Origin: Aulosira sp. ZfuVER01
Lineage (GTDB): Bacteria > Cyanobacteriota > Cyanobacteriia > Cyanobacteriales > Nostocaceae
DNA: 64,000 bases
Assembly (NCBI GenBank): GCA_034530615.2
Contig: JAVRCV020000068.1
Location: 64,001-128,000 of the forward strand
Reading direction: 5' to 3'
Shown here: piece by piece, positions 39,004 to 39,084 of the stretch
How the letters are laid out: each line of letters starts with the position of its first letter
How positions within the stretch are numbered: position 1 is the first letter of the stretch
The notes under the pieces: model-generated
Told to the model about the DNA's origin: nothing
Database searches by the model: none
The model's input: the letters and a program-made list of their open reading frames with translations, nothing else
Position numbers and translations under genes: made by a program

Positions 39004-39084
39004 TGGAGCCGTCGGGAATTGAACCCGACTCCTGCAACCGTCCGTTTGTTGGTTTCGGAGCAGTCGAACGCCAATCGCGGCCCC
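39004..39084 (-). ncRNA. tmRNA tRNA-like-domain-only mini RNA
   Basis: GGGGCCG-CGAUUGGCGUUCGAC...GGAG-UCGGG-UUCAAUU-CCCGA-CGGCUCC-A; G3-U70; no D-stem and no tag ORF. Confidence 0.75.

Follow-up and report, generated by a model that had tools for sequence, protein, structure and literature searches.

What is an 81-nucleotide (nt) RNA gene that carries both ends of transfer-messenger RNA (tmRNA), joined by only a short connector, doing in a free-living cyanobacterium? The gene lies on the minus strand at positions 39004–39084 of a 64,000-nt stretch of the Aulosira sp. ZfuVER01 genome (assembly GCA_034530615.2, contig JAVRCV020000068.1, positions 64,001 to 128,000), referred to here as the window. 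A previous sequence-only reading had described it as the two-ended tRNA-like domain (TLD) of tmRNA without the mRNA domain, had suggested that it acts as an SmpB/EF-Tu decoy or a truncated rescue RNA, and had named the Rfam tmRNA model and the host ssrA gene as the comparisons to make. Both comparisons, together with a survey of related genomes, lead us to conclude that the gene is genuine and conserved and encodes a tmRNA paralogue made of the TLD alone (mini-tmRNA), which would probably be charged with alanine, bind SmpB and serve as a tag-less competitor or helper of tmRNA under stress.

All parts of the mini-tmRNA are encoded on the minus strand. The 5′ strand of the 7-bp acceptor stem, GGGGCCG (39078–39084, with G3 at 39082), pairs with the 3′ strand CGGCUCC (39005–39011), which is followed by the discriminator A73 at 39004, so that the 3′ feature as a whole spans 39004–39011. 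G3 faces U70 in this stem, and no CCA is encoded in the window copy, since CUU comes after the discriminator. The acceptor strand leads into an analogue of the D-loop, CGAUUGGCGUUCGA (39064–39077), in which UGG and UUCGA(C) align with the tmRNA consensus cuGGaUUCGAC of Rfam. A 3-bp CGA/UCG pairing is possible in this region, previously called stemless; it is invariant and hence gives no covariation signal. Helix 2, formed by CUGC (39060–39063) and GCAG (39032–39035), encloses a near-invariant interior of 24 nt, UCCGAAACCAACAAACGGACGGUU (39036–39059), which stands in for the mRNA-like domain and the pseudoknots. The trinucleotide GAG separates the 3′ strand of helix 2 from the T-arm, UCGGG-UUCAAUU-CCCGA (39012–39028; 5 bp with a 7-nt loop), and just 32 nt join the two TLD halves. 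The window copy thereby presents the G3:U70 pair, the UGG..UUCGAC core, the GGA(C) ahead of the T-arm and the paired ends, all as the sequence-only reading had them. The interior contains no stop codon and no tag frame, and ARAGORN calls no tag; of the PK1–PK4 pseudoknots and the long helix 2 of tmRNA there is no trace, the interior structure consisting of the 4-bp helix and a weak 4-bp extension.

The Rfam tmRNA model (RF00023) matches positions 39001–39084 on the minus strand with 43.8 bits (E value of 3.8e-15 with 6 kb searched and of 1.2e-15 for the whole genome). The match runs from model position 1 to 374, with 316 interior positions replaced by 24 nt, and so bears out a domain that has both tmRNA ends and has lost the tag open reading frame (ORF) and the pseudoknots. 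Within the 8.03-Mb genome it is the second-best match to the model; the best is the true ssrA (128.9 bits), and the next are tRNA-Ala and tRNA-Ser genes with at most 24 bits. No report is made at the site with Rfam gathering thresholds, and ARAGORN calls neither a tRNA nor a tmRNA at 39004–39084. Three other identities were considered and rejected. A tRNA-Ala is disfavoured by the missing ARAGORN call, by Rfam clan competition, which kept tmRNA, and by the lack of an anticodon arm in the covarying structure. A Y RNA of the YrlA type gave no match at 39004–39084, and the ends of the element form an acceptor stem. A permuted two-piece tmRNA completed by the next RNA module scored 20.1 bits with the tmRNA_permuted model (E value of 0.5), and that module has a perfectly paired 3′ strand of its own.

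The element belongs to a family that is spread across the cyanobacteria. When 401 genomes of the order were searched by BLAST, copies that include the interior came up in five further genomes; whatever else matched was the 3′ end of a true ssrA gene or a brief chance similarity. The pattern AACCAACAAACGGACGNTTG, sought in a single genome from each of 185,579 species, returned at least 79 loci, two of which are unrelated chance matches without structure. At least 77 loci are cyanobacterial, from Nostoc and its relatives, Leptolyngbya, Oculatella, Myxacorys, Pantanalinema, Scytonema and others; this number is a lower bound, because the copy in Anabaena sp. PCC 7120 described below is not among the matches listed. 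A covariance model that does not depend on the loop alone was built from 24 sequences (R1). It scores the window copy at 111.7 bits and 82 copies in 83 sources at 40.7–113.7 bits, compared with at most 25.8 bits for the tRNAs of the same loci; the remaining source (L091; loci are numbered with the prefix L), which is without the 5′ half, scores 30.1 bits. Three loci (L064, L088 and L097) have a sequence identical to that of the window. Searches with R1 found a copy in 22 of 150 genomes of the window's own family and in 11 of a further 150 taken from across the class, corresponding to 13 of 68 genera, and in all four genomes searched in the window's genus (its own included). The family thus occurs in patches, in the manner of an accessory element, and one copy resides on a Leptolyngbya plasmid (L094).

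Covariation was analysed on 57 distinct sequences aligned to the model, a procedure that somewhat favours the model structure. Pair cells are standard in 97.2% of cases, against 87.9% in shuffles and 36–52% with slid partners, and 11 of the 20 pairs have changed on both sides, values reached in none of 500 shuffles. A gap-free MAFFT alignment of 24 sequences gave 99.0% paired cells and seven pairs changed on both sides. Compensatory changes support all three helices: they are seen in four of the seven pairs of the acceptor stem, in three of the four of CUGC/GCAG and in four of the five of the T stem. The interior stem that had been read from the single sequence is thus upheld in its outer part: the 4-bp helix CUGC/GCAG shows compensatory changes, while the inner UCCG/CGGA is weak, with G-U changes only, no double changes and a break in one subtype. 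An alternative inner helix, AACC/GGUU, was discarded, since G47 is replaced by C or A with no compensating change.

A complete ssrA gene (387 nt, with tag ANNIVSFARKPALAVA) lies on another contig of the host genome, and its ends are unlike those of the mini-tmRNA, with 15 of 22 columns identical at the 5′ end, 17 of 29 at the 3′ end and a longest common word of 8 nt. Over its last 29 nt the element comes nearer to the true ssrA of a different cyanobacterial family (25 of 29 identical), and its T-loop is identical to that of a true ssrA from another cyanobacterial family. This comparison bears on whether the element is an integration scar or a decaying ssrA pseudogene. Fragments of ssrA beside integrases are common, and some copies of the family have decayed. 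BLAST against phage records returned just a 29-nt match to the 3′ end, in phage Nibb (two records of the same phage), where it lies directly upstream of the integrase, a scar-like contrast case; viral contigs gave no match to the pattern, and with these two results a viral origin was rejected. The mini-tmRNA, by contrast, has both halves, paired with each other, its ends are unlike those of the full ssrA located elsewhere, which argues against a scar of that gene, and no integrase was found among the 20 neighbouring ORFs scanned; the near-identity to the host ssrA that an att-site duplication would show was not found. With compensatory changes in 57 distinct sequences, we count the scar or pseudogene as already refuted unless the covariation is an alignment artefact, and give it next to no probability.

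What is conserved within the family points to alanine. Position 3:70 is G-U in 52 of the 57 distinct sequences and in all 24 of the MAFFT set, the exceptions being shortened or damaged copies, while the adjacent pairs 4:69 and 5:68 switch among GC, AU, CG and UA. Together with A73, G3:U70 forms the alanine identity set. The retention of this set while 4:69 and 5:68 vary argues that alanylation is under selection. In the D region, U12, G13 and G14 are invariant in the A2 set. These observations also bear on a simpler possibility, a passive sponge that would bind SmpB off the ribosome and lower trans-translation in stress, with neither alanine nor ribosome entry. The phage RNA compared below has the same architecture, and the genome encodes a single SmpB, at another location and with no paralogue, as might suit such titration. 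A sponge has no need of G3:U70 and A73, although the family retains both amid covarying neighbouring pairs, and it leaves the invariant loop unexplained. We therefore consider the sponge unlikely and favour a charged, ribosome-directed RNA, as the retention of G3:U70 suggests.

The 17-nt interior loop is the most conserved part of the family and is kept across cyanobacterial orders. Copies found with the pattern match the loop core by construction, so conservation was counted on the model-found copies, of which 11 of 13 have the AACCAACAAACGGACGNUUG core exactly; the other two have one change and several changes. Such invariance suggests an additional partner. An antisense target was sought in the host's own genome, where complementary 10–12-mers occur at chance level: for 12-mers there are 33 matches, 18 of them the element itself, against approximately 17 expected (in an assembly without the 16S motif).

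Three subtypes are told apart by the acceptor stem and the D region. Subtype A, that of the window, begins with GGGGCCG and encodes no CCA; subtype B begins with GGGAACG GAUUGGCAUCAC, encodes CCA and has lost UUCGAC; and subtype C begins with GGGGUGA CGAAUGGUGAUCGAC. The copies occur in two genomic settings. In the first, comprising 35 loci, the mini-tmRNA lies in a long tRNA array with 7–34 same-strand tRNA genes per fetched 5–10 kb; 0–7 tRNAs precede it, placing it within the first eight genes, mostly between tRNA-Arg(CCG) and tRNA-Cys(GCA) or between tRNA-Glu and tRNA-Tyr. In the second, comprising 42 loci with few tRNAs (among them L068, a contig-edge piece of an array copy), it comes first in an operon of protein and RNA genes. 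The window locus is of this second kind and is not a tRNA array: it contains two ARAGORN tRNA-like genes inside longer stem structures, together with protein genes. The mini-tmRNA is the first element of its operon, in agreement with its previous description as the head of an array of RNAs.

The array setting includes a model organism. A BLAST search of plasmids matched plasmid delta of Nostoc/Anabaena sp. PCC 7120 (NC_003273.1), where a subtype C copy (L130:3494-3574; R1 score of 93.5 bits) sits between tRNA-Glu(UUC) and tRNA-Tyr(GUA) of the trn operon, 470–500 nt downstream of the trn TGTAGTAT boxes. ARAGORN finds 24 tRNAs in this array and skips the copy, which may be among the reported 26 genes or three 'pseudogenes' under another name. 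The sequence-only reading had recognized the element itself and had missed the family, its placement in L-type arrays including the trn operon, and the promoter box considered next.

Only three TGTAGTAT boxes occur in the entire 64 kb, all on the minus strand. One, at 39201–39208, is 124 nt upstream of the mini-tmRNA and overlaps a TAGTAT −10 hexamer; a second, at 39242–39249, is 165 nt upstream; and a third, at 33385–33392, precedes the 277-aa/ThiF genes. The whole genome of 8.03 Mb contains 203 of them, which gives an expectation of 0.004 per 300 nt. A same-strand box is found 78–168 nt upstream of the mini-tmRNA in 35 of the 42 few-tRNA loci, 15 of them with two boxes, and in 31 of the 35 array loci a box also lies upstream, mostly 300–800 nt away. 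In the parts of PMC10272220 drawn on here, TGTAGTAT is a footprinted binding site of TrcR that overlaps the −10 box TAGTAT of the Anabaena trn promoter; the corresponding parts of PMC10272220 and PMC8421152 describe TrcR as a repressor of the trn operon, rtcB and other translation-related genes that is relieved by translation inhibitors, and those of PMC8421152 report induction of the trn operon by ribosome-targeting antibiotics. From the box we infer that TrcR would also bind the window promoter. A simple sigma-70 scan found no canonical promoter upstream of the gene. The position of the box would place a leader at 39085–39194 (minus strand), which would run from the presumed transcription start to G1 and carry a hairpin, GCCUCCUCAAGAGGC, at its 5′ end. 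On the plus strand the same hairpin, GCCUCUUGAGGAGGC followed by UUUUUU (39176–39190), reads as an intrinsic terminator antisense to the array.

Related sequences are present in RNA libraries. In five metatranscriptome runs from two studies, 5–7% of sampled words were present. Four of these five runs were examined, and three runs of one study each yielded one contig from a relative spanning 38730–39090 with 31–33 differences. The other study gave a subtype B copy inside an array at a depth of 91, as well as a variant with the T-loop insertion described below. Expression is also suggested by the position of the gene in a type of operon known to respond to stress.

The protein and RNA genes that follow in the second setting raise the question of whether the mini-tmRNA works with them rather than with SmpB. 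The typical order is homologues of a 66-aa and a 239-aa ORF, often an L7/L12 paralogue, a vWA protein, and then a 277-aa ORF and ThiF. In the window, the next operon member is a composite tRNA-like RNA (38732–38940, minus strand) with an acceptor stem GGGUCUG/CAGAUCC that again includes G3:U70, a D arm and a T arm; a long stem replaces the anticodon arm and carries a complete tRNA-Lys(UUU)-like cloverleaf (38807–38880) at its tip. The 5′ half of this RNA follows within 400 nt of the mini-tmRNA in 33 of 43 loci of the operon type, with the matching 3′ end in 32. The rest of the operon (35003–38661, minus strand) contains ORFs, RNA modules, the L7/L12 paralogue and the vWA gene: the 66-aa ORF (38461–38661), two further stem-flanked RNA modules, the 239-aa ORF (37259–37978), a tRNA-Leu(UAA)-like module (37152–37226), the L7/L12 paralogue (36694–37086; 105.4 bits with the NCBIfam L12 model, cut-off 84.4), a short stem module (36500–36563) and the vWA protein (35003–36433). 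The vWA protein can be called Ro60-like because its residues 25–394 match solved structures of 'TROVE domain-containing proteins' (E value of 9e-5).

It is conceivable, then, that the mini-tmRNA is a ligand of one of these cassette proteins (the TROVE/Ro60-like vWA protein, the L7/L12 paralogue, or the 66-aa or 239-aa protein), which would bind it through the loop; the acceptor/T minihelix would then provide a stable grip, or the Ala-RNA would be used outside the ribosome. The loop is indeed the most conserved part. In approximately 40 loci the mini-tmRNA keeps synteny with the genes for the 66-aa, 239-aa, L12-like and TROVE-like proteins, and homologues also follow some arrays; the next operon RNA has a G3:U70 acceptor stem too; and bacterial Ro60 binds Y RNAs with tRNA-like modules (PMC4201824). 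No such cassette was found near the PCC 7120 array copy in the 7 kb fetched, however, the stem flanks conserved in the neighbouring RNA modules are absent from the mini-tmRNA, and its features outside the loop are specific to tmRNA. We assign this explanation a low probability. Still lower is that of a mere processing or stabilizing punctuation at the head of the transcript, which would recruit RNase P and RNase Z and have no function of its own. The first place in the operon here and the flanking tRNAs in arrays would suit such a role; any tRNA-like fold would do for it, leaving the tmRNA core, G3:U70 and the invariant 17-nt loop unexplained, and we think it very improbable.

The reading that we prefer, an alanylated tmRNA paralogue without a tag, would work as follows. 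The operon would be transcribed when translation is impaired; the RNA would be excised by RNase P and a 3′ nuclease and receive CCA; AlaRS would charge it through G3:U70; and SmpB and EF-Tu would bind it. It would then be delivered to stalled ribosomes with an empty A site, where it would accept the nascent chain and offer no message. Either it would compete with tmRNA, so that fewer chains are tagged for proteolysis, or it would permit tag-less rescue, completed by an ArfB-type release factor or by drop-off; the invariant loop would probably be read by a further partner. The decoy or truncated rescue RNA originally suggested fits these data, on account of the retention of G3:U70, A73 and the TLD core across a covarying family and of the precedent in phage DS6A.

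Several observations weigh against our preferred reading. The tmRNA match of 43.8 bits falls short of the Rfam gathering score of 47. The SmpB-binding core is not uniformly kept, as the array-type subtype B has GAUUGGCAUCAC in place of UUCGAC. A number of copies have decayed (L051, L076, L091 and three 5′-shortened forms, with G3 lost in L011 and L107), and a 22-nt insertion interrupts the T-loop at 17 of the 77 loci. Expression rests on contigs from RNA libraries of relatives approximately 91% identical, for which a DNA origin is possible and which give neither ends nor strand, and the term 'tmRNA' is absent from the main texts of the two trn operon papers, PMC8421152 and PMC10272220. Finally, the most conserved part, the interior loop, is read by no known step of trans-translation, and decoy action alone would not explain the retention of G3:U70.

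More tentatively, and with rather less confidence than in the tag-less paralogue itself, we can picture a mobile 'translation emergency kit' under TrcR control, whose lead RNA may be an alanylated tag-less tmRNA that enters stalled ribosomes and turns rescue into hold or into Ala-cap-and-release, with the loop recruiting a partner from the kit. If this were the case, free-living bacteria would possess a regulated second branch of trans-translation.

The neighbourhood offers further observations. Five RNA modules of the window share a 5′ flank, GYGCCCUAAC..AAGCWUACA (38877–38900, 38422–38445, 38223–38246, 37223–37246 and 36540–36563, all on the minus strand), and three have a 3′ flank to match, GCUUUUUCAACUYGC. 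Pairing of the flanks gives stems like those of Y RNAs, beside the TROVE/Ro60-like gene. Their inserts are a tRNA-Lys-like RNA, approximately 130 nt of no assigned kind, a YrlA-like permuted tRNA, a tRNA-Leu(UAA)-like RNA and a short loop; the two modules between the 66-aa and 239-aa ORFs are among them, and the YrlA-like one has a weak Rfam match (23.1 bits, E value of 0.17). A protein cassette at 27733–36433 comprises the vWA gene, an ATP-grasp-like ORF on the other strand, the 277-aa ORF, a short ThiF/E1-like protein, 363-aa and 129-aa ORFs, a pentapeptide protein and a MoxR AAA_3 ATPase. The 66-aa ORF has a C-terminal Gly and could conceivably encode a ubiquitin-like partner of the E1-like protein. 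Searches of Pfam, NCBIfam and PHROGs assigned no family to the 66-aa, 239-aa, 277-aa, 363-aa and 129-aa proteins; in the Atlas, the 239-aa protein comes closest to unnamed clusters with more than half of their members viral (score 0.95), which serves as a lead only. Homologues of the 66-aa, L12-like or TROVE-like proteins follow arrays on the same strand at L041, L085, L099, L094, L082 and L077, all from non-heterocystous cyanobacteria, so the array and the Ro60-like cassette travel together in several lineages. Approximately 4 kb past the window end, a third, short frame with an RF-1 domain (G000:C68:131956-132207; a 216-aa open frame, 57.8 bits) adjoins a full-length release-factor gene, and may be ArfB-like or part of that neighbouring gene.

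The T-loop insertion is itself a recurrent feature. Approximately 22 nt long, ACCCUNCGGGAAGGCAAAGCCUA, it folds into two mini-hairpins and occupies the same place in 17 mini-tmRNA copies from all three subtypes (L036, L050, L061, L067, L070, L077, L083, L085, L091, L093, L098–L100, L103, L107 and L112). The same insertion is present in the T-loops of other array tRNAs (L051:1797, L098:5660 and L114:7092), longer or variant forms are found in L087 and L108, and the genome of the window has no such insertion. It resembles a very small mobile element, or an insertion of intron type, directed at T-loops.

The family thus places a TLD-only tmRNA in a new setting, and in a model organism it seems to have escaped notice. 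Large genomes of free-living cells widely carry the tag-less form as an additional gene beside a complete tmRNA, and the promoters of its operons bear the box of a repressor that is relieved by impaired translation. If the action proposed here is correct, bacteria would regulate trans-translation by an RNA competitor or helper, with a bearing on how they cope with ribosome-targeting antibiotics and on the purpose of long tRNA arrays; the copy in the well-studied trn operon of PCC 7120 provides a genetic model open to direct testing.

No tmRNA-like RNA of this kind was found for cyanobacteria in the literature searched, including a survey of tRNA arrays and the Y RNA paper PMC4201824. Among RNAs of the window's surroundings, YrlA with its partner Ro60/Rsr invites comparison, as the mini-tmRNA shares an operon with a TROVE-like protein and with tRNA-mimicking RNAs; unlike YrlA, it has free ends that pair as an acceptor stem, and no stem flanks. 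The L-type arrays, exemplified by the PCC 7120 trn operon, house copies of the family and share the TGTAGTAT box with the window locus, which is itself no array. Standard tmRNA has in common with the mini-tmRNA the acceptor stem with G3:U70 and A73, the D-loop core, the GGA linker and the T-arm; it differs in having a resume codon, a tag ORF and pseudoknots, and measures 387 nt in this host against 81 nt.

Message-less tmRNAs have been described before. The parts of PMC11915505 and PMC4131195 relied on here report mitochondrial forms, plastid forms of approximately 65 bp and a 'TLD only' form in phage DS6A, and according to those of PMC11915505 they are so far from organelles, reduced endosymbionts and one phage. 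The organellar tmRNAs without a coding sequence (in jakobid and oomycete mitochondria, and at approximately 65 bp in Mallomonadaceae plastids) have likewise kept the TLD and lost the mRNA-like domain; the same parts of PMC11915505 note their occurrence together with SmpB and assume that they continue to assist at non-stop ribosomes. Organellar forms replace the standard tmRNA in reduced genomes, and the mitochondrial genes are usually permuted, whereas in the cyanobacteria the short form accompanies a complete tmRNA as an additional, probably regulated paralogue, in free-living genomes of 5–10 Mb.

The closest known counterpart is the TLD-only tmRNA of mycobacteriophage DS6A, which has an entry on the tmRNA Website. 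Its gene (L131, phage positions 28478–28560) scores 43.2 bits with the Rfam tmRNA model, with 312 positions replaced by 20 nt, and 50.1 bits with R1, for which the tRNA background is at most 26 bits. Like the window RNA, it is approximately 80 nt long, has both TLD halves, an identical acceptor stem GGGGCCG/CGGCUCC, the UGG..UCGAC core and a T-arm, and joins them by a short connector (20 nt against 24 nt) that has no tag frame and also contains CGAAAACC. In contrast to the window RNA, it is phage-encoded rather than beside a full ssrA in a cell, lies outside tRNA arrays, and differs in the interior except for CGAAA(A)CC; the TrcR-type box and the invariant loop belong to the cyanobacterial family. 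The two forms may be homologous or may have arisen as parallel truncations. DS6A also encodes an RtcB-like RNA ligase (L132:301-1503), and rtcB is likewise in the TrcR regulon with the tRNA array. In the parts of PMC4131195 used here, a molecule similar to the DS6A TLD strongly inhibits tmRNA whether chargeable or not, perhaps by titrating SmpB.

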